DNA of 64,000 nucleotides from Candidatus Eiseniibacteriota bacterium (GTDB taxonomy: Bacteria; Eisenbacteria; RBG-16-71-46; JABDJR01), in the NCBI GenBank assembly GCA_963762255.1, contig CAVXKA010000002.1, positions 912,628 through 976,627 on the forward strand, written 5' to 3'. Position numbers and translations under genes: made by a program. The stretch's first letter is position 1. Each line of letters opens with the position of its first letter. Under the pieces are notes generated by a model. It was given only the letters and a program-made list of their open reading frames with translations, was not told the DNA's origin and did not search any database. Positions 22,915 through 39,767 of the stretch are shown piece after piece.

Positions 22915-24225
22915 ATGTCCGCTGAAACCACTGCACTTCACACTGACACCGCCGTGTTGCTTGAGGGGGCCGTGCTCACCCGGGTGAGCACCGGGGTCGT
23001 AGGTCGATCGCCGGCCTTGAGTCCGGCTAATTCCGCATCCGCGCGCCCACTTCCCGCCGCGGAGGTCGAAGCTCGTCTGGTCGCCGCGTTGGGGGACCTG
23101 GACGCCGCGCGGAAGAACGCGGTGATCTGGTTCGGAGAGATCCTCGCCCGCAAGCTCTACTTGGAGTTCGGGTGCTCGAGCATCCACCACTATGCGCGAG
23201 AGAGACTGGGGTTCTCTCGGGCGAGGACCGCGTACTTCCTGCGACTGTGTCGGTCCTTCGAAGCACTGCCGGCGTTGAAGGAGTCGATCGCTACCGGGAT
23301 GGTGCCGTGGACGAAGGCACGGGAGGTGGTGAAGGTGGCCACGCCGGAGACGGAGTCGTTCTGGGTCGAGCAGGCTCGGACCACCGGCCGGCGCGAGTTG
23401 GAGCAGCGGGTGGCGGCGACACAGGGGGCGGCGCGCTCCCGGCGGCGGGCACCAGGGCAAGGGGAACTGCTGGCGGCGAATGGCGTGGATGGCCCGGCGA
23501 ATGGGCGGGCGGCCGGAACCCATGATGCGGTGGACGGCGCAGCCGGCACGGTCGTGAGCCCGGTGACGGAAGTCCCGGTCACGGTATCGTTCCAACTTTC
23601 GCCGGAGCAGTACGCGCGGTATGAAGCGATCCTGGAGCAGGCGCGCAAGACCGGTGCGCGTGGATCTCGCGAAGAGTTGTTCCTCGCCGCGTGGGAAATG
23701 CTCACCCGGGGCAACTTCGGCAGTGCACCGCCCGCGCGGAGCGGGCGGAACCCGGACGTGATCACCCGGGGCAACATACCGGCGGCGAATGCGACTCCCG
23801 TGTCATCCGCGCCCCGCTACCAGATCGTCATTCGCCAGTGTGAGACCTGCGGCCGAGCTGAGATCGCGACGGGGCGGGGGGCGATGCCCATCGCGCCCAG
23901 GACGTTGGAGACCGCGCTCTGCGATGCGCGCGTGCATCGAAAGGGTCAACCCAACCGCGCGACCATCCCTCCGTCGGTGCGGCGCGAGGTGCTCGCACGT
24001 GACGGTCATCGCTGCCGGACGGCGGGATGCGGCGGTGTGCGGTTCCTGGACGTGCACCACATCGTGCCGCGCGAACACGGTGGCAGCAACGATCCTGACA
24101 ACCTCATCACCCTGTGTTGTGCCTGTCACCGGATGATCCACGAGCGCAGCAACGCGGTTGATGCGTGGCCGCTGCGGCGGGGTTCCGGGATCGATGCTCA
24201 CCCGGGTGGCACCTCCGCGGCGTAG
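22915..24225 (+). CDS. DUF222-HNH endonuclease domain protein
   Basis: 436 aa. C-terminal HNH motif ...RFLDVHHIVPREHGGSNDPDNLITLCCACHRMIHE. The N-terminal region resembles DUF222 (13E12-repeat-family-like) proteins. Confidence 0.7.
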   Translation: MSAETTALHTDTAVLLEGAVLTRVSTGVVGRSPALSPANSASARPLPAAEVEARLVAALGDLDAARKNAVIWFGEILARKLYLEFGCSSIHHYARERLGFSRARTAYFLRLCRSFEALPALKESIATGMVPWTKAREVVKVATPETESFWVEQARTTGRRELEQRVAATQGAARSRRRAPGQGELLAANGVDGPANGRAAGTHDAVDGAAGTVVSPVTEVPVTVSFQLSPEQYARYEAILEQARKTGARGSREELFLAAWEMLTRGNFGSAPPARSGRNPDVITRGNIPAANATPVSSAPRYQIVIRQCETCGRAEIATGRGAMPIAPRTLETALCDARVHRKGQPNRATIPPSVRREVLARDGHRCRTAGCGGVRFLDVHHIVPREHGGSNDPDNLITLCCACHRMIHERSNAVDAWPLRRGSGIDAHPGGTSAA

Positions 24226-24366: not shown

Positions 24367-25599
24367 CTACGTCCCCACCTTGAACATCTGCCGCGCCTTC
24401 TCCAGCGCGCGCACCAGCGCGTCCACTTCCTCGGGCGTGTTGTAGAGGTAGAACGACGCGCGCGTCGTCGCCGGCACGCCGAGCACGCGCATGAGCGGCT
24501 GCGCGCAGTGATGACCGGCCCGCACCGCCACCCCTTCGTTGTCGACGATGGTGGCCAGATCGTGCGGGTGGATGTCGCCCAGGCCGAATGAGATCGCCCC
24601 ACCCCGCTCGGTGCGCGGCCCGTAGATGCGCAACCCCGGAACCGCGCTCAACGCCTCCAGCGCGTACGCGGTGATCTCCTGCTCGTGACGCCGCACATTC
24701 TCCATCCCCAGCGCGGTCAGGTAGTCGACGGCCGCCGCCATCCCTACCGCACCGGCGATGTTGGGCGTGCCCGCTTCGAACTTGTGCGGCGCCTTCTTGT
24801 AGGTGGAGCGCTCGAGCCGCACCTCCAGAATCATCTCTCCTCCGCCGTGGAACGGGGTCATCGCGTCCAGCAGATCCGCCTTGGCGTAGAGCGCACCAAC
24901 GCCCGTCGGCGCGAGCATCTTGTGCCCGCTGAACGCGAAGAAGTCGACGTCCAGCGCCGCCACGTTCACCGGCATGTGCGGCGCCGACTGCGCGCCGTCC
25001 ACGAGCACCTTCGCGCCGACCGCGTGCGCGGCCTCCACAAGCCGCCGCACCGGGTTGATCGTCCCGAGCGCATTCGACATCTGGTTGAAGGCGACAAGCT
25101 TCGTCCGCCGGGTGAGCAACTCGTCCAGCTTGCTCAGGTCGAGCGTGTAGTCCTGAGTCAACGGGATGAACCGCAGGACGGCCCCGGTGTCTTGCGCGAC
25201 CATCTGCCACGGCACCAGGTTCGAGTGGTGCTCCATCACGGTGAGAAGGATCTCGTCGCCCGGCTTGAGCGTGCGCCGCGCCCACGCGTACGCGACGAGG
25301 TTGATGCTCTCGGTGGTGCCGCGCGTCCAGATCAGTTGATCCGGCGACGGCGCCCCGATGAACGCCGCCACGGTCGCACGCGCGTCCTCGAAAGCCTGGG
25401 TCGCACGCTCCGCCAGCGCGTACACCCCGCGGTGCACGTTGGCGTTGTCGTGCTCGTAGTAGGCGCGCACGCGGTCGAGCACCTGCCGAGGCTTCTGCGA
25501 GGTGGCCGCGTTGTCGAGGTAAACCAGGGGCTTGCCGTGCACGCTCTGGTGCAGGGCCGGGAAATCGGCGCGGATCGTGTTCACGTCGTACATGGGCAT
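24367..25599 (-). CDS. sufS: Cysteine desulfurase (SufS/Csd class-II aminotransferase)
   Basis: 410 aa from MPMYDVNTIRADFPALHQ...LDNAATSQKP...FSGHKMLAPTGVGALY...RAGHHCAQPL.... The upstream 310 aa of the track ORF are Gly/Glu/His-rich junk. Confidence 0.8.
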   Translation of the reverse strand: MPMYDVNTIRADFPALHQSVHGKPLVYLDNAATSQKPRQVLDRVRAYYEHDNANVHRGVYALAERATQAFEDARATVAAFIGAPSPDQLIWTRGTTESINLVAYAWARRTLKPGDEILLTVMEHHSNLVPWQMVAQDTGAVLRFIPLTQDYTLDLSKLDELLTRRTKLVAFNQMSNALGTINPVRRLVEAAHAVGAKVLVDGAQSAPHMPVNVAALDVDFFAFSGHKMLAPTGVGALYAKADLLDAMTPFHGGGEMILEVRLERSTYKKAPHKFEAGTPNIAGAVGMAAAVDYLTALGMENVRRHEQEITAYALEALSAVPGLRIYGPRTERGGAISFGLGDIHPHDLATIVDNEGVAVRAGHHCAQPLMRVLGVPATTRASFYLYNTPEEVDALVRALEKARQMFKVGT

Positions 25600-25647
25600 C
25601 GAGTATAGCGCTCGCCCGAAAGGCTCCCAACTCGCTATTCTCCCCCC

Positions 25648-26877
25648 ATGCCTCTCCACATCCGGCCGCACCCGCACGAGGATCGCCCGGACTTCACGCC
25701 GAGCGAACGCTCGGTGGTGGGCGGCCTCACCGCGCTCCTCACCCTGCGCATGCTGGGGTTCTACCTGGTGCTGCCGATCCTTGCTCCCTACGTGCGCGGG
25801 CTCGCGGGAAGCACCCCGCTCCTGGTTGGGATGTCGGTGGGCGTGTACGGCCTCGCCCAGGCCCTCCTCCAGGTTCCGTTCGGAGCATGGGGCGATCGAT
25901 GGGGCCGACGCCCCGTGCTCACGGTAGGGCTCCTTTCGTTCGCGCTGGGCTCGGTCGTGTGCGCGATCGCGCACGACGCGCGGCTCATGGTGCTCGGCCG
26001 TCTTGTGCAGGGGGTGGGCGCGATCTCCTCCACCCTGGTCGCCATGCTGGCCGATCATACGCGCGACCGGGTGCGCACACGCGCGATGGCCATGATCGGA
26101 GTGGCGGTGGGCGGCTCGTTCGCGGCCGGGCTTCTCTTCGGTCCCGCTGCCGCCGCGCGCTTCGGCATCCCCGCCCTCTTCTGGCTCACCGCCGTTCTCA
26201 GCGTCCTTGCCGTGGTGTGGTTGTGGTGGAAGATCCCCGACCCGCCGCTCTCGATCCATCACGAAGAGATCGAGTACTCGCGAGGCCATTTCCTCGAGGT
26301 CCTCCTCGACCGAAACCTCCTTCGCCTGGACCTCGGGGCGTTCAACCTCCACGTCGTGCTCACCGCGATCTTCGTCACCGTGCCGTTCCTGTTGCGGCAT
26401 CTCCTCGCCGAGCAGTATCAGTGGCGGTTCTTTCTCCCCGTCCTCGCCGTGGGCCTCGCCGCCCTGATTCTCGCCCCGCCCCTGAGCGAGAAGCGGGGGC
26501 GACCGAAGAAAGTCGCCGTCGCCGGGCAACTGGTGCTCGCGGCATCCCTAGTCGTGCTTGCGTTGGGGGTTCCGGCCAGCGTGCGGGAGCCGCGGGTCGG
26601 GCTCACCACGCTCATCGCGGGGCTCCTCCTCTTCGTGATCGCGTTCGCCGTCTTGGAGCCGCTCTTCCCCGCTCTCATCACGCGGTTCTGCCCATCCTCG
26701 ACGCGCGGCACCGCCCTCGGCGTATTCAACATGAGCATGTTCAGCGGGGCGTTCGTGGGGGGAATCGTCTCGGGACTCCTGATCGAGTCGAACGTCGAGG
26801 CGCTCTTCTGGATCCTCACCGGCACGACGTTGTCGTGGATCGCGCTCGGGTCGACGCTCAACGATCCGGAGAGGTAG
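25648..26877 (+). CDS. MFS transporter
   Basis: 409 aa, about 12 TM segments. MFS motif region ...FGAWGDRWGRRPVL.... Confidence 0.7.
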   Translation: MPLHIRPHPHEDRPDFTPSERSVVGGLTALLTLRMLGFYLVLPILAPYVRGLAGSTPLLVGMSVGVYGLAQALLQVPFGAWGDRWGRRPVLTVGLLSFALGSVVCAIAHDARLMVLGRLVQGVGAISSTLVAMLADHTRDRVRTRAMAMIGVAVGGSFAAGLLFGPAAAARFGIPALFWLTAVLSVLAVVWLWWKIPDPPLSIHHEEIEYSRGHFLEVLLDRNLLRLDLGAFNLHVVLTAIFVTVPFLLRHLLAEQYQWRFFLPVLAVGLAALILAPPLSEKRGRPKKVAVAGQLVLAASLVVLALGVPASVREPRVGLTTLIAGLLLFVIAFAVLEPLFPALITRFCPSSTRGTALGVFNMSMFSGAFVGGIVSGLLIESNVEALFWILTGTTLSWIALGSTLNDPER

Positions 26878-27772
26878 CACCCCGGGCGACCGCGTCGGGC
26901 TCCGCGTAGGCGCCGGCGCGCCGAAGCGCCTCGGTGGCGCGCGCGCCGGGAAAGCTCACGAGGATCGCCAGCGCCGCTCCGGCCAGCGCGTCGATCGCGT
27001 AGTGATATCCCCCGTAGACCGCTCCTACCGCCAGCGCGGGGACGATGAGCGCGAAGACTCGCGCGAGCCGCACGTGATAGCGCATCGCCATGATCCATGC
27101 CGTCACCGCCACCGCCACGTGGCTGGAGGGAAAGGCGGCGCCCACCGCGGAGCCTCGATCCAACACGGATCGCACGAGCCCCGGCAACAGGTAGCCCACC
27201 GTGGCGGGATCGCTGCGTGGAAAGGCGTGGTAGGGGCCCACGACCGGATAAAGCACGAAGATCGCGAAGCAGGAGTAAGTAGAGAGCGCGACCGTTCCGA
27301 TCGCGATTTCGAACTCGCGGCGCGGGCGTCGCAGCCACAAAACCGCGGCCAGCGTTGGCGTGAGGAAGTAGTACGCGAAGTAGCCCAGGTGCAGGTACTC
27401 GCCGAGCAGCCGCCATGGCCAGAGCAGGTGAAGCTCGCGCGCGGGCTGAAACCCGAAGACGATCTGCTCCAGGTCCTGGATCGCCGCATCGTGGAAGACC
27501 CCGGCGTGCACCGCCTTCACGAGCAGGCCCACTTCGGAATAGAAGAGCGCGAACGCCACGATCGGATAGAAGCCGAGAACGACCGCGCCCACTTTCCATC
27601 GGTGGACACGATACGCGCGCGCGAGCACGATGGCGGCGATCGCGGCGACGTGAAGCACGATGAGCAACGCGGCGTTCGGCGGCCGGTGCGGCGCGAGAAG
27701 GAGCATCACGAGCCCGAAGACGAGGTAGGCCAGGGTGTACAGATCCGCCGGCCGCAGACGCCTCACAAGCAT
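26858..27772 (-). CDS. PAP2-superfamily membrane phosphatase-like protein
   Basis: 304 aa from MLVRRLRP.... Multi-TM. PAP2 motifs (PSSHV; YGGYHYAIDALAG). The start overlaps the upstream gene stop by about 10 nt. Confidence 0.6.
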   Translation of the reverse strand: MLVRRLRPADLYTLAYLVFGLVMLLLAPHRPPNAALLIVLHVAAIAAIVLARAYRVHRWKVGAVVLGFYPIVAFALFYSEVGLLVKAVHAGVFHDAAIQDLEQIVFGFQPARELHLLWPWRLLGEYLHLGYFAYYFLTPTLAAVLWLRRPRREFEIAIGTVALSTYSCFAIFVLYPVVGPYHAFPRSDPATVGYLLPGLVRSVLDRGSAVGAAFPSSHVAVAVTAWIMAMRYHVRLARVFALIVPALAVGAVYGGYHYAIDALAGAALAILVSFPGARATEALRRAGAYAEPDAVARGATSPDR

Positions 27773-28740
27773 CCCTCCCGACGGTACCAATCGACGGTCT
27801 CCGCAAAGCCCGTCACCGCATCGATGCGCGCACGAAAACCGAAGTCGGTCTCGGCGCGCGCCCCACTGCAGACCCAGCCCGGAGCGAGCAGATCCGCAAG
27901 CCGATCCGGAGGAAGCCCATTGGGACGCCCGCTCATCGCCGCTGCGATGCCGGCGATCCGGCCCACCGCGGGGATCCCCCGCCGCGGGATCCGCAGACGC
28001 CTCACGCGACGGCCGAGCCGAGCCGCGATCAGCCGACCGAGCGATTCCCAATCGGTGATCTCCGGGTGTGCGACGTAGTACGTGCGGCCGATCGTGCGGT
28101 CGGACTCCGATGCCGCGACGATCGCCTCGGCCAAGTCGCGCGCATGGATGAGGCTCACGTGCTGCGCGACACGTCCTATCGCGGGCACCCATCCCCGCGC
28201 CGCGAGCCGCGCGAGCAGCAGAAACGAAACGTCGCGCGGGCCGTAGACCGCGGGCGGACGGAGGATCGTCCAGGCCGTACTTCCCGCCTCCGACTTGAGC
28301 AGGGTCTCTCCACGGAGCTTGCTACGGCCGTAGGAATTGCATGGCGTGTCGGGATCATCCTCGGTGCGTGCTCGCCCGGCGACGCTGGGACCGCCGGCGG
28401 CGAGGCTGCTCACCAACACCAAACGGCGCGCGCCTTCCGCGGCTGCGGCGCGAGCCACATGTGCGCACCCGCCGGCATTGACGCGGTCGTATTCCTCTGG
28501 ATCGGTGGCACGAGTGATCCCCGCGACGTGGTAGATCACCTCGATCCCGCGCGCGGCCTCGGCGAGCGCTTGCGGCTCGGTAACCTCGCCGTAGACCAAC
28601 TCCACGCGATCCACCGGGAGCCACGCCAGCTTGCTGGTGCGCCGCACCAGACACCTAACGCGATGCCCGCGAGCAAGCAGCGCGTCGGCAAGATGACTCC
28701 CCACGAACCCGCTCGCTCCGGTGACCAGCGCCAGGGTCAA
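27763..28740 (-). CDS. NAD(P)-dependent epimerase/dehydratase-family protein (candidate ceramide/3-ketosphinganine reductase-like)
   Basis: 325 aa from a TTG start (LTLALVTGASGFVGSHLADALLARGHRV...). Rossmann GxxGxxG and a YxxxK-type SDR-extended layout. The TTG overlaps the upstream stop (TTGA). Confidence 0.65.
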   Translation of the reverse strand: MTLALVTGASGFVGSHLADALLARGHRVRCLVRRTSKLAWLPVDRVELVYGEVTEPQALAEAARGIEVIYHVAGITRATDPEEYDRVNAGGCAHVARAAAAEGARRLVLVSSLAAGGPSVAGRARTEDDPDTPCNSYGRSKLRGETLLKSEAGSTAWTILRPPAVYGPRDVSFLLLARLAARGWVPAIGRVAQHVSLIHARDLAEAIVAASESDRTIGRTYYVAHPEITDWESLGRLIAARLGRRVRRLRIPRRGIPAVGRIAGIAAAMSGRPNGLPPDRLADLLAPGWVCSGARAETDFGFRARIDAVTGFAETVDWYRREGCL

Positions 28741-29870
28741 GGGGCCGTCGCTCCCTCGGAGCGGCCCTCGTAGATACGGTAGGTCTTGTAGGGCCTCCCC
28801 CCGAAGTTCTCGAGCGGCTTGCGTATGGCGAGGTTGTCCTCGAGCAGCCAGGAGAACTCGCCCCAGGTGTAGCCCTTCTTCACGCCGTGGCGGAAGTAGT
28901 CGCGGTACATGATCACGTCGATGCCGGTGTGCCGATACTCCTGGAGAAGTCCCAGCACCAGCACCCGCGCGCGGTTGATATGGCGCGCGTGCCAGAGGAT
29001 CTTGAGCAGCCCGAACGGAAAGAGGTGCCCGTTGGCGTGCTTGACCGCCTGGTTGAGATCGGGGAGCCCGAGCGCGAAGCCCACCGCCTTCCCCTCGAGT
29101 TCGGCGATGAGGATGAGCCCGGGGTCGATGACCGGCTTCAACTGCTTGGCCATGTGATCGATCTCGGCGTCGGTCATGGGCACGAAACCCCAGTTCTTCT
29201 CCCACGCCGAGTTGTACACGATCCGGAACTTCTCCACGTCCTCCTGGAACCGCTTCTTGTCCAGGCGACGAACGACAACCCCCGGATTGCGCTCCTGGGC
29301 GATCGCACCTCCCCGCTCCAGCCTCTCCGGGACTCCCACGTTCGGCATGCAATAGGCGAAGAGATCCTTGGCCTTCACGAGCCCGCAGGCTTCCACCAGC
29401 CGCCCGTAGTACGGCAGCGCGTGCGTCATCATGACCGCGGGGGGCGTGTCGAAGCCCTCCACCAGGAGCCCGCACTCCTCGTTCGTGCTCGGGTTCATGG
29501 GACCGATGAACCGCGGCAGCCCCTGTTCGCGGTGGTAGGCGCGCACCGCATCGAAGAGCGCCCGCGCGGCCTCGGTGTCGTCCTCGCACTCGAAGAACCC
29601 GAAGAATCCCATCGCCTCGTCGTGGAACGACTCGTGGTTGCGGTTGCGGATCGCCGCAATGCGCCCGACGACTCGCCCGTCGCGCAGCGCCAGCATCGGA
29701 CGGATGTCGCCGTGCTCGAAGAAGGGGTTCTTGGCCGGGTTGAAGAGCGCCTTCACGTCGCCGATCAGAGGCGGGATCCAGTGCGGATCGTCGCGATAGA
29801 GGCGCCAGGGAAGCGTCACGAAGACGTGCAGTTCGCGGCCCGAGCGGACCGGTTCCACCGTGATCGACAT
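28737..29870 (-). CDS. GNAT-like N-acyltransferase of unknown specificity (candidate bacterial ceramide synthase-like)
   Basis: 377 aa, MSITVEPVRSGRELHVFVTLPWRLYRDDPHWIPPL.... Reads as an acyl-CoA N-acyltransferase fold with FemAB/GNAT-like duplication. No closer assignment is possible by eye. Confidence 0.5.
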   Translation of the reverse strand: MSITVEPVRSGRELHVFVTLPWRLYRDDPHWIPPLIGDVKALFNPAKNPFFEHGDIRPMLALRDGRVVGRIAAIRNRNHESFHDEAMGFFGFFECEDDTEAARALFDAVRAYHREQGLPRFIGPMNPSTNEECGLLVEGFDTPPAVMMTHALPYYGRLVEACGLVKAKDLFAYCMPNVGVPERLERGGAIAQERNPGVVVRRLDKKRFQEDVEKFRIVYNSAWEKNWGFVPMTDAEIDHMAKQLKPVIDPGLILIAELEGKAVGFALGLPDLNQAVKHANGHLFPFGLLKILWHARHINRARVLVLGLLQEYRHTGIDVIMYRDYFRHGVKKGYTWGEFSWLLEDNLAIRKPLENFGGRPYKTYRIYEGRSEGATAP

Positions 29871-29899
29871 GGGCTAAGCCCCCCGAAGTTCCTACGCGG

Positions 29900-31147
29900 T
29901 CAAGAGATGATGCCGAGCTCGCGCCCGACCTTGCGGAAGACCTCGAGCATCCGGTCGATGTTCTCTTCGGTGTGGGTGGCCATGTACGAGGTCCGGATCC
30001 GGCACGAAGTCTCGGGTACCGCCGGCGGCACCACCGGGTTCGTGAAGACGCCCTCCTCGAACAGGCGCTTCCAGAACACGAACGTGTGCTCGAGGGTACC
30101 GATGATGACCGGGACGATGGGTGTCTCCGACGTCGTGGTGTCGTAGCCCATGCGCTGGAATTCCCGGCGCATGCGGTCCGAGATCTCGTTCACGCGCTGC
30201 CGCCGCCAGGGCTCTTCCTTGATCAGGTCGAGGCACTTCTGCACCGTCGCCACCGCATAGGGAGGCATGCTGGCGCTGAAGATGAGGGCGCGCGCGTGAT
30301 GACGCATGTAGTGGATGACCGATTCCTCGGCGGCCACGTAGCCGCCGATGGACGCGAAGGACTTGGAGAACGTACCGGCGATCAAGTCCACATCGCCCAC
30401 GACCCCCTTCACTTCGCTGGCGCCGATCCCCTTCTTCCCCAGAATCCCCACGGAATGTGCCTCGTCCACCATGAGCCGCGCGCCGTGGGCGCGGCATGCC
30501 TTGACGATCTCCGGAAGCGGCGCGATGTCCCCCTCCATCGAGAACACGCCGTCCACGACCACCAGCCGCCCGCGCTTGGAATCGATGCGCCCCAGGATCC
30601 GCTCGAGGTCGCCGATTTCGTTGTGCCGGAAGCGGCGGGTCTCGCCGTAGGAGAGCCGGCAGCCGTCCACGATGCTGGCGTGGTCGAACTTGTCCATGAT
30701 GACCACGTCGTCGCGGCCCACCATGCTGGAGATCGTGCCGAGGTTCGTCTGGAAACCGGTGGAGAAGATGAGGCAGGATTCCTTCTCGCAGAACTCCGCG
30801 AGGTCGTGCTCCAGCTTCTCGTGAATGTCGAGGGTGCCGTTCAGGAACCGGCTCCCGGTGCAGCCGGTGCCGTACTTGCGCGCCGCGGCCTCGGCCGCTT
30901 CCATCACCCGCGGGTCGTGCGTGTAGCCCAGGTAGTTGTTGGAGCCCGCCATGATCAGCGACCGGCCGTCGATGATGACTTCGTTCGCCGACGAATCGGC
31001 GATCGGGATGAAGTAGGGATAGTAGCCCGACGCCTGCGCCTCGCGGGCGCGCGTGAAGGTGTAGGCCTTCTTGAAGATGTCGGCGATTTCCTGAGCCTCG
31101 TGGGCCGGAGTCGCCATCGGATTCGGATCCATCCTGCCTCCGCACAT
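29900..31147 (-). CDS. PLP-dependent alpha-oxoamine synthase (serine palmitoyltransferase / 8-amino-7-oxononanoate synthase family)
   Basis: 415 aa. ...NNYLGYTHDPRV...CTGSRFLNGT...IFSTGFQTNLG...VVDGVFSMEGD...DEAHSVGILGKKG...GTFSKSFASIGGY..., PLP-Lys in the TFSKS motif. AONS/Spt family. Confidence 0.8.
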   Translation of the reverse strand: MCGGRMDPNPMATPAHEAQEIADIFKKAYTFTRAREAQASGYYPYFIPIADSSANEVIIDGRSLIMAGSNNYLGYTHDPRVMEAAEAAARKYGTGCTGSRFLNGTLDIHEKLEHDLAEFCEKESCLIFSTGFQTNLGTISSMVGRDDVVIMDKFDHASIVDGCRLSYGETRRFRHNEIGDLERILGRIDSKRGRLVVVDGVFSMEGDIAPLPEIVKACRAHGARLMVDEAHSVGILGKKGIGASEVKGVVGDVDLIAGTFSKSFASIGGYVAAEESVIHYMRHHARALIFSASMPPYAVATVQKCLDLIKEEPWRRQRVNEISDRMRREFQRMGYDTTTSETPIVPVIIGTLEHTFVFWKRLFEEGVFTNPVVPPAVPETSCRIRTSYMATHTEENIDRMLEVFRKVGRELGIIS

Positions 31148-31380
31148 GGTGATTCACACGGTGTCTCCCACGAGCTGGGGGCGGTCGGGAGACGGGCCGG
31201 GAACGCAATAGCCTAACCGGAAGGCGTAGTCATTCCAAGGGCTTTCCCGTTTCGCGCGCGCGGTCGGGGGCGCGGTGCCTCGGTGCGTGCCGCGGATAAC
31301 GGATGCGGCGCCTCGGCACGCGCCATGAAGAAAGCGGTACGGTTGGCCGTGTCCCGTGGATCGGGTAGAATCGCCCGCTT

Positions 31381-33489
31381 ATGACCCCCACAAGCAATCG
31401 CACTCCGTCGTCATCGCTCGATCGGGACCAGCTCGTCGCGATCTACCGCAACATGGTCCTCTCGCGTCGCATGGACGACGCGGAGATCAAGCTCAAGCGT
31501 CGCAACCAGTACTTCTTCCAGATCAGCGGCGCGGGGCACGAAGCGGTCCTGACCGTGGCGGGGATGCTCCTCCACTCCGGCCACGACTGGTTCTTCCCCT
31601 ACTATCGCGACCGCGCGCTGTGCTTGCAGCTCGGAGTGACCCCGCGCGAGATGCTGTTGCAGGGGGTGGCCGCCGAGGACGACCCGGCGAGCGCCGGGCG
31701 CCAGATGCCGAGCCACTGGGGTCACGCGAAGCACAATATCGTCTCTCAATCGAGCCCGACCGGCACCCAGTGTCTGCATGCGGTGGGTTGCGCCGAGGCG
31801 GGGATGCATTTCGAGCGCCATCCGGATCTGCCCGGCAAGCCGCGCTTCGAAAGCGACGAGGTCGCCTACACCTCGGTCGGCGACGGCACCACGAGCGAGG
31901 GCGAGTTCTGGGAGGCGCTCTCCGCCGCCACCGTGAACAAGCTTCCGGTGCTGTTCATGGTCGAAGACAACGGCTACGCGATCAGCGTGCCGACCAGCGT
32001 GCAGACCCCGGGTGGGAAGATCAGCAAGGCGGTGGAGGGGTTCACCGGGCTCCTCGTGGAGGAGTTCGACGGCACCGACGCGGTCGCTTCCTATGAGGCC
32101 CTCGCGCGGCTCGTCCAGTATTGCCGCGAGCGCAAGGGACCGGCGCTGGCGCACGCACATGTGGTGCGCCCCTATAGCCACTCCATGTCGGACGATCATC
32201 GCGCGTACCGCACCGAGGCCGAGTTGGCCGACGAGGCAAAGCGCGATCCGGTCGACAAGCTGCGGAAGCGGCTGCTGGAGGAAGGTGTCTTGACGGACGC
32301 CAGGCTGGACGCTCTCCACGCCGAGGTGGACGAAGAGATCGAGGCGGCGGTGGCGGCGGCGCTGGAATCGTCCATGCCTCCGCTCGAGAGCGCGGGACTC
32401 TACGTCTACTCCCCCGACGTCGATCCCACCTCGGGGGCGTTCGCCACGGAACCGGCGCCAGGAGGCGCCGACGCGTCCGTGGTGGAACTCATCAACGCCT
32501 GCCTCGTCGACGAGATGGAGCGCGATCCTCGCATCGTGGTCTTCGGCGAGGACGTGGCCGACGCCACCAAGGAGGAAGCGCTCCGCGAGACCAAGGGGAA
32601 GGGCGGGGTGTTCAAGGTCACGAGCGGACTGCAGCGCCGCTTCGGCAGCGATCGCGTGTCGAACTCACCCCTGGCCGAGGCCAACATCGTGGGACGGGCG
32701 GTCGGCATGGCCTTGCGGGGACTCAAGCCTGTCGTGGAGATCCAGTTCTTCGACTACATCTGGCCCGCGTACCACCAGATCCGCAACGAGCTCGCGATGA
32801 TGCGCTGGCGGAGCGGCAATCACTGGAAGTGCCCGCTCGTCATCCGGGTGCCGATCGGCGGCTACCTCGGCGGCGGCGCGGTCTATCACAGCCAGTGCGG
32901 CGAGGTGCTCTTCACCCACAACCCGGGATTGCGCGTGGTCATGCCCTCCAACGCGCTCGACGCGAACGGGCTCCTGCGCACCGCGATCCGCTGTGACGAT
33001 CCGGTGATCTTCCTCGAGCACAAGCACCTCTACCGCCAGCCGTACGCCAAGGGACCGCGCCCGGGCCCGGACTACATGATCCCCTTCGGCAAGGCGCGCA
33101 TCGCGCGCGAGGGGAAGGACGCCACGCTCGTGACCTACGGCGCCACCGTGCGCCGCGCGGAAATGGCGGCCAAGGATCTCGAGAAGGACGGGGCCTCGAT
33201 CGAGGTCATCGACCTCCGCTCGCTCTCGCCGTGGGATCAGGATGCGGTGGCGCAGAGCGTGCGCAAGACCGGTCGCGCGCTGGTGGTCTACGAGGATAAC
33301 CGCTCGTGGGGTTACGGCGCCGAGATCGCGGCGTGGATCGCCGACGAGCTCTTCGAGCACCTCGACGCGCCGGTGCGCCGTTTCGCGGGGATGGACAACC
33401 CGGTCGCCTACGCACCCAACCTCGAAGACGTCATCCTGCCGCAGACGGAGACGATCGCGCGCGCGATGCGGGAGCTGCTCGCGTACTGA
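31381..33489 (+). CDS. 2-oxo-acid dehydrogenase E1 component, fused alpha-beta (TPP-dependent; pyruvate/branched-chain type)
   Basis: 702 aa. N-terminal E1-alpha ([34 protein letters not shown]...) and C-terminal E1-beta (transketolase-like, ...VFGEDVAD...GGVFKVT...). No E2/E3 genes are adjacent. Confidence 0.75.
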
Positions 33490-36600: not shown

Positions 36601-37410
36601 CTACCCCGGAACCCCGAACTCCCGCAGCGCCTCGTTCAATGACGTCTTCCGATCGGTGGACTCTCGCCGGCGTCCGATGATGAGCGCGCACGGCACCGCA
36701 TAGTTCCCGGCGGGAAAGGCCTTGGGCCGCGTGCCAGGGATGACCACGGACCGCGCCGGCACTCGCCCGTGCGACACGACCGGCGATGGGCCGGTCACGT
36801 CCACGATCGGCGTGCTCGCGGTGAGCACCACGCCCGCACCGAGCACCGCTTCCTCTTCGATCAAGACGCCCTCCACCACGATGCAGCGCGAGCCGATGAA
36901 CGCGCCGTCCTCGACGATGACCGGCGACGCCTGCACCGGCTCCAGCACGCCGCCGATGCCCACGCCTCCCGAGAGGTGCACGCCCTTGCCGATCTGCGCG
37001 CACGAGCCGACCGTGGCCCAGGTGTCCACCATCGTTCCCGCCCCGACGTGAGCGCCGATGTTCACGTACGACGGCATGAGCACCGCGTCCGCCCCGATGA
37101 ATGCGCCGTAGCGCACGGTCGCGGGCGGCACCACGCGCACCGACGCGGCCGCGAAGCCCCGCTTCAGCGGGATCTTGTCCCGATACTCGAAGGGCCCGAC
37201 CTCACGCACCTCCGCCTTGCGCAGCGTGAAGTAGAGGAGCACCGCTTCCTTCAACCACGCATGGGTCACCCACGCGCCGTCGAGCTTCTCGGCCACGCGC
37301 AACTCGCCCGCGTCCAGCGCCGCCACCGCGCGTTCGACCGCCGCCGCCACGTCCGCTGCAGCCGCGCCGCGCCGGATCGGCCCAGGCCGCCTCGATGAGC
37401 GCGGCGTCAT
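36601..37410 (-). CDS. dapD: 2,3,4,5-tetrahydropyridine-2,6-dicarboxylate N-succinyltransferase
   Basis: 269 aa. Left-handed beta-helix hexapeptide repeats (...GAFIGADAVLMPSYVNIGAHVGAGTMVDTWATVGSCAQIGKGVHLSGGVGIGGVLEP...). Confidence 0.8.
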   Translation of the reverse strand: MTPRSSRRPGPIRRGAAAADVAAAVERAVAALDAGELRVAEKLDGAWVTHAWLKEAVLLYFTLRKAEVREVGPFEYRDKIPLKRGFAAASVRVVPPATVRYGAFIGADAVLMPSYVNIGAHVGAGTMVDTWATVGSCAQIGKGVHLSGGVGIGGVLEPVQASPVIVEDGAFIGSRCIVVEGVLIEEEAVLGAGVVLTASTPIVDVTGPSPVVSHGRVPARSVVIPGTRPKAFPAGNYAVPCALIIGRRRESTDRKTSLNEALREFGVPG

Positions 37411-37440
37411 CCTTCCATCGTTTCTCGTCCATGCCCTCTC

Positions 37441-38604
37441 CTACGGCGTCGCGCGGGCGAGCCGATCCATCGCATCGCGCAGCGTTTCCTCGTTCGAGGT
37501 GAGCGCCAATCGCACGTAGCCTTCGCCTTGCGCGCCCAGCGCGTTTCCGGGCAGCACCACGACTCCCGCTTCCAGCCAGCGCGTCGCAAGCTGATCGGAG
37601 GTCATGCCGCTTGGAACCGGGAGCCATATGTAGAACGTCGACGGCGGCGGGGTCACCGCGAATCCCATCCGATTGAGCGCGGCCACGACAAGATCGCGCC
37701 GCCTGCGGAAGCGCTCGCGAATGCCTTCGACATGGGCATCGTCGGCCCACGCCGCATGCGCCGCCGCCTGGATGAAATCCGGCGTGGCCACACCGAGGCC
37801 CGGCCGCACACGCTTGAGCGCCTCGATGAGCCGCGCGTCGCCCGCCATGATGCCGCTGCGATAGCCCGCCATCCCCGAGCGCTTCGAGAGCGAGTAGAGC
37901 GCCAGGATGTTCTCGGTCCCCCACTGCAGCGGCGAAGGCGGCGGGTCGTCGAAATAGGTCTCGCTGTAGGCCTCGTCGCTCACCAGGAGCACGCCGTGCC
38001 GGCGCGCCAGGACCACCGCCTCGGCGAGGAACGACGCCGGCGCCACCGCACCCGTGGGGTTGTTCGGGTAATTGATCCAGAGGATCGACGCGCGCCGCCA
38101 TACCTCGTCGGGAATTGCGCGCAGATCGGGAAGAAATCCATGATCGGCGCGAAGCGGCATCGGATAGACCTCGCCGCCGAACGCTCGCGTGCCGAGCGCG
38201 TAGACCGGGTATGCGGGGTCGGGCACGAGCGTGAGCGGGCGCTCGGCGGGGTCCAGCACCGCAAGCGGCAGGTTGAAGATCGCCTCCTTCGAGCCGTTCA
38301 CCGGCAGCACTTCGCGCTCCGGATCGACGCGGGCGCCGAACCGGCGCGCGAGCCACACCGCGGCAGCCTCGCGCAACCCGGGGAGACCGGTCACGCGCGG
38401 ATAGGTCGACTCCTCCGGGATCGCCTCGGTCATCGCGAGCTTCACGAAGTCCGGGGTGGGCTCGTGGGGATCCCCCATCCCCAGGTCGATGACGCGGATG
38501 CCGCGCGCTTCCACCTCGGCGCGCAGCGCGTCGAGGCGCGCGAACGGATACGGCGGGAGATCGCGCAAGTAGCGGCTGGTGGGAAGGGACGCCGGCAGGG
38601 ACAT
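37441..38604 (-). CDS. Class-I/II PLP aminotransferase (succinyldiaminopimelate aminotransferase DapC-like)
   Basis: 387 aa. ...VIDLGMGDPHEPTP...NYPNNPTGAVA...SLSKRSGMAGYRSG... (PLP-Lys). Located between dapD and dapE. Confidence 0.7.
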   Translation of the reverse strand: MSLPASLPTSRYLRDLPPYPFARLDALRAEVEARGIRVIDLGMGDPHEPTPDFVKLAMTEAIPEESTYPRVTGLPGLREAAAVWLARRFGARVDPEREVLPVNGSKEAIFNLPLAVLDPAERPLTLVPDPAYPVYALGTRAFGGEVYPMPLRADHGFLPDLRAIPDEVWRRASILWINYPNNPTGAVAPASFLAEAVVLARRHGVLLVSDEAYSETYFDDPPPSPLQWGTENILALYSLSKRSGMAGYRSGIMAGDARLIEALKRVRPGLGVATPDFIQAAAHAAWADDAHVEGIRERFRRRRDLVVAALNRMGFAVTPPPSTFYIWLPVPSGMTSDQLATRWLEAGVVVLPGNALGAQGEGYVRLALTSNEETLRDAMDRLARATP

Positions 38605-38606
38605 GC

Positions 38607-39701
38607 TTACCTCCCGTCGAGAAACGCGGCGAGCGCATCGTGCGCGCGGACCAGGTTGACGATCGGCACGCGCTCTTCACGCGTGTGGGCGAGTTCGGAA
38701 AGACCGGGCCCGAAGTTGGCGGCGGGAACGCCGTGTTGCGCGAACTGGGCCACGTCGGTCCATGCCTGCTTGGCCCGCGTGTCCAGGGCGTTCGACTCGA
38801 TGAACCGGCGCAGGAGCGGCGCGTCCGCACGCGCGGGGGCCGCGGGAGCGAGATCGACGATCTCCACCGTCGAGCCTGCTGGGGCGAGCGAGCGCACATG
38901 GGCGGCGGCATCCTCAGGCGAGCGGTCGGGGGCGAAGCGAAAGTTGAGGTTCACGGTGAAGCGATCGGGCACCACGTTGCGCGCCGAACCGCCCTCGGCG
39001 AGCGTGGCGGAGAGGACTTCGCGAAAGATCACCGATCCTGCGCCATGCTCGCGCGGCGGCATTTCCGCGATCCTGGTCAGAAACGGACCCGCCTTGTGGA
39101 TCGCGTTCTCCCCCTGCCAAGGCCGCGCGCTGTGGGCAGCCCGACCGTGGAAGGTCACGCGCGCGTGCAGCGTCCCGAGGCAGCCCAGTTCCGCCGCGTT
39201 TCCGGTGGGCTCGAGCATGAGCGCCAGCTCCGCGCGGGTGAGCCACGGCTCCAGCGCGAAGAGAGAACGCAGGCCGTTGCGCTCGAAGGGCCCCTCCTCG
39301 CGGTCGTAGAACACGAGGGCGAACGGCGTCATCGCGCGCGACGCCGCGCGCTCGGCCAGCGCCAGCATCACCGCGAGTGCACCCTTCATGTCGGTGGCGC
39401 CAAGACCGTGGACGTCGCCGCCGTCGATCGCGGGCTCGAGGTTCCCATTGGCGGGCACGGTGTCCAAGTGCCCGGCCAGCACAACCACGGGTTCCAACGC
39501 GCCGAACCCGGCCACGACCGCGTTCCCGTGCCGGCGCAGAAAGGCCGGGCGCGTGCGCTCGCGCAGAACGCTCTCCACGAAGCCGGCGATCGCGACTTCG
39601 TCGCCGGTCACGCTCGGGATGCGCACGAGGTCGAGGGTGCATCGGGCAAGAGTCTGGTCGAGGGAGGCGGGATCCGCGGGCGTCAACATGCGCGCAAGCA
39701 T
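38607..39701 (-). CDS. dapE: Succinyl-diaminopimelate desuccinylase (M20 family)
   Basis: 364 aa. M20 metal ligands (...LAGHLDTVP...DMKGALA...) within the dapD-dapC-dapE context. Confidence 0.75.
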   Translation of the reverse strand: MLARMLTPADPASLDQTLARCTLDLVRIPSVTGDEVAIAGFVESVLRERTRPAFLRRHGNAVVAGFGALEPVVVLAGHLDTVPANGNLEPAIDGGDVHGLGATDMKGALAVMLALAERAASRAMTPFALVFYDREEGPFERNGLRSLFALEPWLTRAELALMLEPTGNAAELGCLGTLHARVTFHGRAAHSARPWQGENAIHKAGPFLTRIAEMPPREHGAGSVIFREVLSATLAEGGSARNVVPDRFTVNLNFRFAPDRSPEDAAAHVRSLAPAGSTVEIVDLAPAAPARADAPLLRRFIESNALDTRAKQAWTDVAQFAQHGVPAANFGPGLSELAHTREERVPIVNLVRAHDALAAFLDGR

Positions 39702-39767
39702 ACGGGTTTTCGGCCGGATCGCCAGCCGGTCACTCGAACTTCGTGCAGAAGCCGGATCGCCGGCCGG

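Follow-up and report, generated by a model that had tools for sequence, protein, structure and literature searches.

The four co-directional genes at positions 26858-31147 on the minus strand of the analysed 64,000-nucleotide stretch of DNA (hereafter the window) from a Candidatus Eiseniibacteriota bacterium form an operon that probably serves de novo synthesis of phosphosphingolipids. A serine palmitoyltransferase-like enzyme (Spt), a bacterial ceramide synthase (bCerS) and a reductase of the CerR type would build the ceramide, which an Aur1-like transferase would subsequently supply with a head group. This reading is based on protein families assigned by homology and fold, on catalytic residues that are kept, on the structure of the operon and on a conserved neighbourhood; its predicted part comprises the substrates and products, the sequence of the steps and the nature of the head group. 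The core ceramide gene set is already known from many phyla, such that the find is solid and largely expected, and the Aur1-like gene coupled to cerR is its fresher element. The features of the operon are compiled in Table 1.

Table 1. Features of the putative phosphosphingolipid operon and its upstream region (positions refer to the window).
Feature	Position	Strand	Size	Remarks
spt, alpha-oxoamine synthase, Spt-like	29900-31147	minus	415 aa	from ATG at 31147
bcerS, tandem-GNAT N-acyltransferase, YghO / CC_1154 family	28737-29870	minus	377 aa	ATG start
cerR, NAD(P)-dependent extended SDR, epimerase family, candidate ceramide / 3-ketosphinganine reductase	27763-28740	minus	325 aa	TTG start
Aur1-like PAP2_3 integral membrane protein, candidate ceramide phospho-head-group transferase	26858-27766	minus	302 aa	GTG start
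Intergenic region, spt to divergent E1 dehydrogenase gene	31148-31380		233 bp	presumed operon promoter, from gene layout alone

The coordinates and the common orientation of the four genes, as given in the first-pass annotation, were confirmed, whereas the overlap it described applies to two of the three junctions. Stop and start codons overlap as TTGA between bcerS and cerR and as GTGA between cerR and the PAP2_3 gene, and these overlaps indicate co-translation. At the remaining junction, a spacer of 29 nt separates the spt stop codon from the start of bcerS, and a GGGGGG run is situated upstream of the bcerS ATG. The third-position GC content of the four frames (0.78-0.91) is what would be expected from real genes in a genome with approximately 67% GC. 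The true start of spt is more likely the ATG at 31132, which would result in a protein of 410 aa, because the homologue in the closest genome comprises 409 aa. An alternative start of the PAP2_3 gene exists with the ATG at 27772 (304 aa). A simple scan of the intergenic region for sigma-70 sites returned none on the minus strand and one on the plus strand, facing the E1 gene.

The first gene encodes an alpha-oxoamine synthase (Pfam Aminotran_1_2, 190 bits), which has been proposed to side with Spt and not with BioF or Kbl. This assignment agrees with the NCBIfam scores, the PDB scores and a neighbour-joining tree. The best NCBIfam matches were Spt-CFB with 500.8 bits and Spt-BetaP with 425 bits, compared to 391 bits for bioF and 368 bits for Kbl. 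The protein stays below three Spt equivalog cut-offs (NF047600, 500.8 vs 640; NF047599, 425.4 vs 500; NF047603, 339.9 vs 670), which is expected for a protein from another phylum, because these models are lineage-specific for CFB, beta- and alpha-proteobacteria. Among the PDB entries, the SPTs from Sphingobacterium (388 bits), S. wittichii (306 bits) and S. paucimobilis (289 bits) were matched better than BioF/Kbl (275 bits), Kbl (250 bits), BioF (221 bits), ALAS (202 bits) and CqsA (120 bits). In the tree, which was calculated with two outgroup sequences and no bootstrap, the protein falls into the Spt clade with the S. paucimobilis-type and E. coli SPTs as sisters to its own clade, and E. 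coli Kbl and BioF are placed outside. Collectively, these data support the assignment to the Spt side, with characterised SPTs being nearer than BioF, Kbl, ALAS or CqsA, and serine is the predicted substrate. When the protein was aligned with the cluster enzymes of Streptomyces, E. coli and the S. paucimobilis type, the residues H159, D231, H234, K265 and R390 (S. paucimobilis SPT numbering) proved to be invariant; they are common to the whole AOS family and alone do not split Spt from BioF/Kbl. The alignment shows no conservation of the S. paucimobilis residue Arg378, which is equally missing from the E. coli SPT, which has been shown to be active (PMC9386255).

It seems improbable that the enzyme uses alanine, glycine or cysteate instead of serine, which would direct the operon towards 1-deoxyceramides or N-acylated capnine-type sulfonolipids. 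The Spt scores under the equivalog cut-offs would be compatible with such an activity, the cysteate-C-fatty acyltransferase is a significant PDB match with 203 bits, and a reductase and an N-acyltransferase are also required for sulfonolipid synthesis. Moreover, the identical enzyme set has been shown to yield 1-deoxyceramides when alanine replaces serine, as described in the supplement of Ding et al. (PMC11334938). However, the three characterised SPTs score far above the cysteate enzyme, no cysteate synthase is found among the annotated genes of the window, and an Aur1-like transferase would need a C1 hydroxyl, which should be provided by a serine-derived base only.

The second gene product had been regarded as a GNAT-like protein of the bCerS kind, and full-length alignments uphold this view. 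It shares 36% identity with E. coli YghO over 98% of the length and 37% identity (E 3e-82, residues 1-368) with the N-acetyltransferase at the 'aca' position in Sphingomonas parapaucimobilis; for the Caulobacter gene CC_1154, Padilla-Gomez et al. (2022, PMC9386255) list yghO/ECD_02850 and DRN02_007910 as homologues. The order of the Sphingomonas cluster, epi-acpR-spt-...-lptF-lptG-...-aca, matches the locus tags in that article, and its spt product hardly differs from the S. paucimobilis SPT that has been crystallised (907 bits). The window protein shares a tandem-GNAT fold with MshD and N-myristoyltransferase, two N-acyltransferases that depend on acyl-CoA. It gave no curated family match in Pfam or NCBIfam; NCBIfam contains no bCerS model, and accepted bCerS homologues are likewise without matches. 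The alignments support its assignment as a full-length homologue of accepted bCerS homologues, in which the link to CC_1154/CCNA_01212 is one step removed, via the homologues named in the literature.

The third gene encodes an extended SDR (Pfam Epimerase, 125 bits; NAD_binding_10, 90 bits) with the motif TGASGFVG at residues 7-14 and a YGRSK (YxxxK) motif, whose counterpart in the E. coli cluster reductase is YANSK. Its identity amounts to 29% with the E. coli (E 8e-31) and 30% with the Sphingomonas cluster reductase (E 3e-33), at 105-112 bits, and to 39% with the Streptomyces cluster reductase (E 2e-48, 152 bits). The top matches in 72,556 plasmid records were genes adjacent to bCerS homologues with 162, 132 and 130 bits, compared to 73-83 bits for annotated HpnA, which are modest margins. 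HpnA is also the top NCBIfam match, with 134 bits against a cut-off of 368, and the same pattern is seen in accepted CerR homologues. A weak match to NDUFA9-type 39-kDa subunits (31-41 bits) was obtained as well, and likeness to these subunits has been reported for CerR. The Rossmann motif is located at the very start of the protein and no signal peptide is visible, which also applies to the E. coli and Sphingomonas homologues; for Caulobacter CerR, a periplasmic location has been reported. With 29-39% identity to the reductases of these clusters, the protein represents a candidate CerR-type reductase.

The neighbourhood was surveyed in the 80 best-matching GTDB loci of the GNAT gene, counting neighbours within 3 kb. 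An Spt-like gene was present in 55 of the 80 loci and missing in 25, an SDR gene was found in 44 and both together in 43. All four genes occur together at 13 loci, mostly from Gemmatimonadota and Eisenbacteria. The loci span Gemmatimonadota, Zixibacteria, Acidobacteriota, Ignavibacteria, Binatia, Myxococcota, Bdellovibrionota and others, and the closest genome (locus L001) displays the same gene order with 54-78% amino acid identity over the four genes. Since the order is kept in this genome and Spt accompanies the GNAT gene at the majority of loci from many phyla, the arrangement is not due to chance. A biotin or LPS context in relatives, which according to the first-pass annotation would have refuted its reading, was never encountered at the 80 loci; Spt, GNAT and SDR genes were found instead. 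The YghO/bCerS family is highly conserved over very distant phyla (44-55% identity among these loci) and usually adjoins spt, which lends support to sphingolipids being common among environmental bacteria.

The generic Pfam names and the GNAT-like protein lacking a curated family match could suggest that unrelated housekeeping enzymes, namely BioF or Kbl, a sugar epimerase and a protein acetyltransferase, simply lie side by side. The probability of this explanation is close to nil. It is opposed by the overlapping stop and start codons, the adjacency of the trio across many phyla and the homology to clusters with experimentally proven SPTs, and no biotin, threonine-dehydrogenase or sugar-nucleotide genes are located near the operon in the window. 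The SPT-leaning PDB scores, the neighbour-joining tree, the homology to the Sphingomonas cluster and the adjacency at the 80 loci effectively refute it.

The fourth gene encodes a PAP2_3 protein with an Aur1-like multi-helix membrane fold. In sequence-profile as well as structure comparisons, it matches yeast AUR1 best, across most of the protein length and with 14% identity. The residues H216, H255 and D259, corresponding to a His-His-Asp triad (C2 PSxH, C3 HxxxD), are invariant in alignments of 15 and 25 sequences and align with AFPSLH and HHYFVD of AUR1. The first-pass annotation had left open whether the PAP2 protein adds or removes a phosphorylated head group. Because the protein is specifically Aur1-like, addition is predicted to be much more likely than removal. 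It is rather unlikely, though less so than the alternatives considered above, that the core trio makes ceramide but the fourth gene encodes an ordinary phosphatase of lipid phosphates, either PgpB/LpxE-like or acting on ceramide-1-phosphate, or a protein functionally unrelated to the pathway. The phosphatase C1 motif KxxxxxxRP was absent from the protein in a regex search.

An assignment as PI-dihydroceramide synthase (BT_1522; NF052609) was rejected, with 31.2 bits against a cut-off of 480 and an alignment confined to residues 198-269. BT_1522 is an Aur1 homologue and the genetically proven bacterial PI-dihydroceramide synthase (PMC9246714). The Delta-BT_1522 mutant of Bacteroides still produces PE-dihydroceramide, hence, a second transferase must exist in this genus. 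A copy of the fourth gene with 31% identity overlaps a CerR-like gene in Bacteroides finegoldii, and the Aur1-like PAP2_3 gene adjoins cerR in Eisenbacteria and Gemmatimonadota. No gene assigned to the ceramide phosphoethanolamine or phosphoglycerol step in bacteria was found in the accessible literature. We tentatively consider that the cerR-coupled Aur1-like PAP2_3 proteins might represent an uncharacterised family of bacterial ceramide phospho-head-group transferases distinct from BT_1522, which could make ceramide phosphoethanolamine or phosphoglycerol. The gene is a testable candidate for ceramide decoration in these bacteria and may point to the Bacteroidota head-group transferase that is still without a gene.

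In the proposed phosphosphingolipid pathway, the PLP-dependent Spt would condense L-serine with a long-chain acyl thioester to 3-ketosphinganine. The acyl donor is probably acyl-CoA, because the cluster lacks a dedicated ACP or acyl-ACP synthetase gene. The tandem-GNAT bCerS would acylate the amino group with the second chain, and the extended SDR CerR would use NAD(P)H to reduce the ketone at C3; which of these two steps comes first is a matter of dispute in the literature, also in the case of Caulobacter. Finally, the Aur1-like protein would use its His-His-Asp triad to attach a phospho-head group to the (dihydro)ceramide at the C1 hydroxyl. A glycerophospholipid would donate this group, which may be inositol, ethanolamine or glycerol phosphate, and would be released as diacylglycerol. 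For a candidate phylum that is represented by metagenomes only, the operon provides a compact and well-supported example of the bacterial ceramide pathway, and it leaves the known picture of bacterial ceramide making unchanged.

The ceramide pathway of Caulobacter crescentus reportedly comprises Spt (CC_1162/CCNA_01220), bCerS (CC_1154/CCNA_01212) and CerR (CC_1164/CCNA_01222) (Stankeviciute 2022, Olea-Ozuna 2021). The window operon encodes the same three families, i.e. a PLP-dependent Spt, a YghO-type N-acyltransferase and an epimerase-family reductase. Its proteins are linked to those of Caulobacter via the counterparts from E. coli and Sphingomonas named in the literature. However, it lacks AcpR, AasR and the LptF/G paralogue, which are all present in alpha-, beta- and gamma-proteobacterial clusters, its trio is contiguous and translationally coupled instead of being spread over approximately 10 kb, and its Spt is nearest to the Bacteroidota (CFB) type. 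Caulobacter reportedly builds the head group with a ceramide kinase and CpgD to obtain ceramide diphosphoglycerate, whereas here a PAP2_3 protein is the transferase candidate. The YghO cluster of BL21-type E. coli strains contains lptF/lptG paralogues, spt, acpR, epi, aasR and yghO, and resembles the window operon in its N-acyltransferase and its reductase at the identities given above; in contrast to the window operon, it harbours the ACP, acyl-AMP ligase and Lpt paralogues and no PAP2 gene. In E. coli K-12, the yghO cluster is not intact. Compared to AUR1 and BT_1522, the fourth gene differs in being coupled to cerR and not to an inositol-lipid cluster, and neither a Kei1-like partner nor inositol-synthesis genes were seen within the window. 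The first-pass annotation had expected that the find extends bacterial sphingolipid synthesis to this lineage. The operon is indeed present, but the step is small, given that Ding et al. (2024, ISME J, PMC11334938) already describe Spt/bCerS/CerR sets from 9 phyla and Spt-like genes from 40. Eisenbacteria and Gemmatimonadota are not named in the accessible parts of its main text or supplement, and a PAP2 gene is not mentioned in those of the supplement. In the same study, contiguous Spt-like, bCerS and CerR genes in uncultured non-proteobacterial phyla defined the 'clade B' Spt-like proteins, and the window operon has the same arrangement.

Our analysis supports the interpretation of four minus-strand genes at 26858-31147 as a ceramide cluster, comprising genes for an alpha-oxoamine synthase (AOS, spt), a GNAT-like protein (bcerS), an epimerase-family reductase (SDR, cerR) and a PAP2_3 protein. 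The first-pass annotation had described them as co-directional and overlapping, which holds for the direction and for two junctions, namely a TTGA stop/start overlap between the GNAT and SDR genes and a GTGA overlap between the SDR and PAP2 genes, whereas a 29-nt spacer carrying a GGGGGG run separates the AOS stop from the GNAT ATG. Third-position GC amounts to 0.78-0.91 across the four frames in a window of approximately 67% GC, and an alternative AOS start (ATG at 31132) would give 410 aa, a better fit to the 409-aa homologue in L001, the locus of the closest genome. The arrangement looks like a single translationally coupled operon. It is bordered upstream by a 233-bp intergenic region followed by a divergent gene for a fused E1 dehydrogenase, and downstream by a convergent MFS transporter gene overlapping the 3' end of the PAP2 gene by 20 nt; promoter and terminator scans gave nothing useful on the minus strand.

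Features of the operon and other genes of the window
Feature	Position	Strand	Length (aa)	Remarks
AOS (gene 1)	29900-31147	-	415	
GNAT-like protein gene (gene 2)	28737-29870	-	377	
Epimerase-family SDR (gene 3)	27763-28740	-	325	TTG start
PAP2_3 membrane protein (gene 4)	26858-27766	-	302	GTG start; ATG at 27772
Fused E1 alpha/beta 2-oxoacid dehydrogenase	31381-33489	+	702	E1_dh + Transket_pyr + Transketolase_C
MFS transporter	25648-26877	+		
SufS-like ORF	24367-26529	-	720	Aminotran_5 domain at residues 336-705 only
DapD-like tetrahydrodipicolinate succinyltransferase, class I/II aminotransferase, DapE-like M20 peptidase	36601-39767	-		in tandem
ORF with HNH endonuclease domain	22915-24225	+	436	domain at C-terminus

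The E1 gene lies beside spt also in L001 and in no other compared locus; it was rejected as part of the system, because this adjacency is confined to the closest relative. As a speculation, the dehydrogenase could supply branched-chain acyl-CoA. The remaining annotated window resembles ordinary chromosome (SufS-like, MutY-like, DapD/aminotransferase/DapE-like and FabI-like genes, peptidases). A biotin or LPS context had been named beforehand as a sign against a ceramide cluster, and among the annotated window genes no biotin, threonine-dehydrogenase or LPS genes were found near the operon. Some of these surroundings deserve a remark of their own. The long 5' extension of the SufS-like ORF overlaps the opposite-strand MFS gene; the true gene probably encodes about 412 aa, as in L001, the rest being an ORF extension of the spurious type typical of high-GC DNA. 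The dap-like trio, likewise present in L001, belongs to the succinylase branch of lysine synthesis, and its aminotransferase, the second of the window, is not an oxoamine synthase. At a position comparable to that of the HNH ORF, L001 carries an ORF of 748 aa that matches HNH weakly.

The assignment of the AOS to the Spt family, already proposed in the first-pass annotation, had to be weighed against a BioF or Kbl identity, since Pfam returned only the generic Aminotran_1_2 model. NCBIfam placed Bacteroidota-type Spt first (500.8 bits), followed by betaproteobacterial Spt (425), bioF (391) and Kbl (368), all scores falling under the equivalog cut-offs. Among PDB entries, the SPTs of Sphingobacterium multivorum (388 bits), S. 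wittichii (306) and S. paucimobilis (289) scored above Thermus BioF/Kbl (275), Kbl (at most 250), BioF (at most 221), cysteate-C-fatty acyltransferase (203), ALAS (202) and CqsA (120). In a neighbour-joining tree with a thin outgroup and no bootstrap, the window AOS fell within a large clade of GNAT-adjacent AOS genes, to which the Sphingomonas and E. coli SPTs were sister, with E. coli Kbl and BioF outside. The PDB scores and the tree led us to reject the BioF/Kbl identity, and by its sequence gene 1 is Spt-like. The columns of His159, Asp231, His234, Lys265 and Arg390 show no variation when the AOS is aligned with an SPT of the S. paucimobilis type, the active SPT of E. coli and an enzyme from a Streptomyces cluster; Arg378 is not kept in the AOS and is absent from the E. 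coli enzyme, too.

For gene 2, tblastn against plasmid and chromid records revealed 36% identity to E. coli YghO over 98% of the length and 37% identity (E 3e-82) to a Sphingomonas parapaucimobilis N-acetyltransferase. Padilla-Gomez et al. 2022 (PMC9386255), who demonstrated activity of the E. coli SPT, list yghO ECD_02850, Swit_3908 and DRN02_007910 as homologues of the Caulobacter N-acyltransferase CC_1154, and ECD_02852, Swit_3897 and DRN02_007875 as those of the reductase CC_1164. The gene orders that we found agree with these locus-tag series: lptF, lptG, aminotransferase, ACP, epimerase, fatty acyl-AMP ligase and yghO in E. coli, and NAD(P)H-binding protein, ACP, aminotransferase, ATP-binding protein, lptF, lptG, desaturase and N-acetyltransferase in Sphingomonas, where the aminotransferase is essentially the S. 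paucimobilis SPT known from its crystal structure (907 bits to 2JG2). Because both matches occupy the listed CC_1154 positions in matching gene orders, the ~377-aa protein, earlier read as bCerS-type, is by homology a member of the bCerS/YghO family. A search of PDB sequences returned solely a 13-bit chance match, and no curated bCerS or CerR model came out of NCBIfam, which has none for either family, or of Pfam; the blank result is uninformative, because accepted homologues likewise draw no such match. Full-length homologues (38-41% identity) in several records of Roseomonas plasmids are labelled 'dATP pyrophosphohydrolase', a name that was probably propagated in error. A full sphingolipid cluster of the Caulobacter type, with paralogues of lptF and lptG as well as spt, ACP, epimerase, acyl-AMP ligase and yghO genes, also lies beside glcC in the non-K-12 strain E. 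coli PN43 (L084:1349-9128, NZ_MG591698.1); such a cluster is already known from BL21 (PMC9386255), whereas K-12 has no intact yghO.

Gene 3 encodes an extended SDR with the motifs TGASGFVG and YGRSK that is likely orthologous to CerR, judged from its similarity to the cluster reductases of E. coli (29% identity, E 8e-31), Sphingomonas (30%, E 3e-33) and a Streptomyces plasmid (39%, E 2e-48), the last with contiguous aminotransferase, GNAT and epimerase genes. In 72,556 plasmid records, its top matches adjoin bCerS homologues (Aureispira 162 bits, Streptomyces 132, Rubrobacter 130), and annotated HpnA genes reach 73-83 bits. HpnA is also the top NCBIfam model, far under its cut-off, and accepted CerR homologues give the same profile. 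The protein also shows a weak similarity to NDUFA9-type subunits, a trait described for CerR as well.

The fourth gene matches Pfam PAP2_3 with 57 bits (cut-off 27). The lone sequence found no match in the PDB and a family profile was required; with a profile of 15 cluster-linked homologues the best match was yeast AUR1 (E 1.7e-6, 219/290 positions), the catalytic subunit of inositol phosphorylceramide synthase, and the match to PgpB, LpxE and acid phosphatases was confined to the last ~70 residues. His216 (AFPSSH) as well as His255 and Asp259 (HYAID) are invariant in the homologues and line up with the AUR1 motifs, and the protein lacks KxxxxxxRP, the C1 motif of phosphatases; on these sequence features it is Aur1-like. 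It is not the same enzyme as BT_1522, an Aur1 homologue of Bacteroides that is proven to be a PI-dihydroceramide synthase (PMC9246714), because its score against the equivalog of that enzyme is only 31 bits (cut-off 480). Elsewhere the slot after cerR holds a condensation-domain protein (Streptomyces sp. NBC_01001 plasmid, L082:9048-10295) or an LTA-synthase-family protein (Rubrobacter radiotolerans plasmid, L089:7110-9179); to judge from these differing genes, this slot may house a variable module for decorating ceramide with head groups.

A related pairing occurs in Bacteroides finegoldii (L088:6001-7964, NZ_OY725910.1), where the gene of a CerR-like NAD(P)-dependent oxidoreductase overlaps one for a PAP2 protein with 31% identity to the window protein (E 2e-14); the pairing is absent in Parabacteroides (L090). 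This PAP2 gene has no NCBIfam match and hence does not fit the BT_1522 model. Bacteroides must own a second head-group transferase, because the delta-BT_1522 mutant still produces PE-dihydroceramide, and the B. finegoldii gene is a candidate for it; our literature searches found nothing linking a Bacteroides PAP2 with dihydroceramide.

From the observed families, catalytic residues, operon and neighbourhood we infer the following substrates, products and head-group transfer. Spt would join serine and an acyl thioester to 3-ketosphinganine, with acyl-CoA as the probable donor because AcpR/AasR genes are absent. The tandem-GNAT bCerS would N-acylate this product and CerR would reduce the 3-keto group, although the order of the two reactions is disputed in the literature even for Caulobacter. 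Finally, the Aur1-like enzyme would place a phospho-head group on the C1-OH, with a glycerophospholipid as donor and release of diacylglycerol.

The closest public genome, a MAG labelled Candidatus Eisenbacteria, has an identical gene order including the E1, MFS, SufS and DUF302 neighbours, with amino-acid identities of 54-78% for the four proteins (Spt and GNAT-like protein 73-78%, SDR and PAP2 54-55%). In exact look-ups the PAP2 protein was on record, 100% identical, on an NCBI/ENA contig, and the GNAT-like protein was absent. Among the best 80 of at least 598 GTDB-species loci encoding a gene 2 relative, 55 have an Spt-like gene no farther than 3 kb from the GNAT gene, 44 have an SDR gene at this distance, 43 have both and 13 have all four genes together. 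Within these 80, the Spt, GNAT and SDR trio is found, for example, in Gemmatimonadota, Acidobacteriota (Bryobacterales), Ignavibacteria, Binatia, Myxococcota (Archangiaceae), Verrucomicrobiota and Elusimicrobiota, most or all loci of Zixibacteria and Bdellovibrionota have Spt without SDR, and the PAP2_3 gene joins the three others chiefly in Eisenbacteria and Gemmatimonadota, for whose sphingolipids our literature searches found nothing. This pattern matches the published surveys: Stankeviciute 2022 found Spt, bCerS and CerR in 9 phyla, and Ding et al. 2024 (PMC11334938) widened the range of Spt-like genes, which often have bCerS and CerR beside them, to 40 phyla and described the co-localisation as not universal. 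The wide occurrence of this gene set is known already, and the cerR-coupled Aur1-like gene is the sole element meriting experiment.
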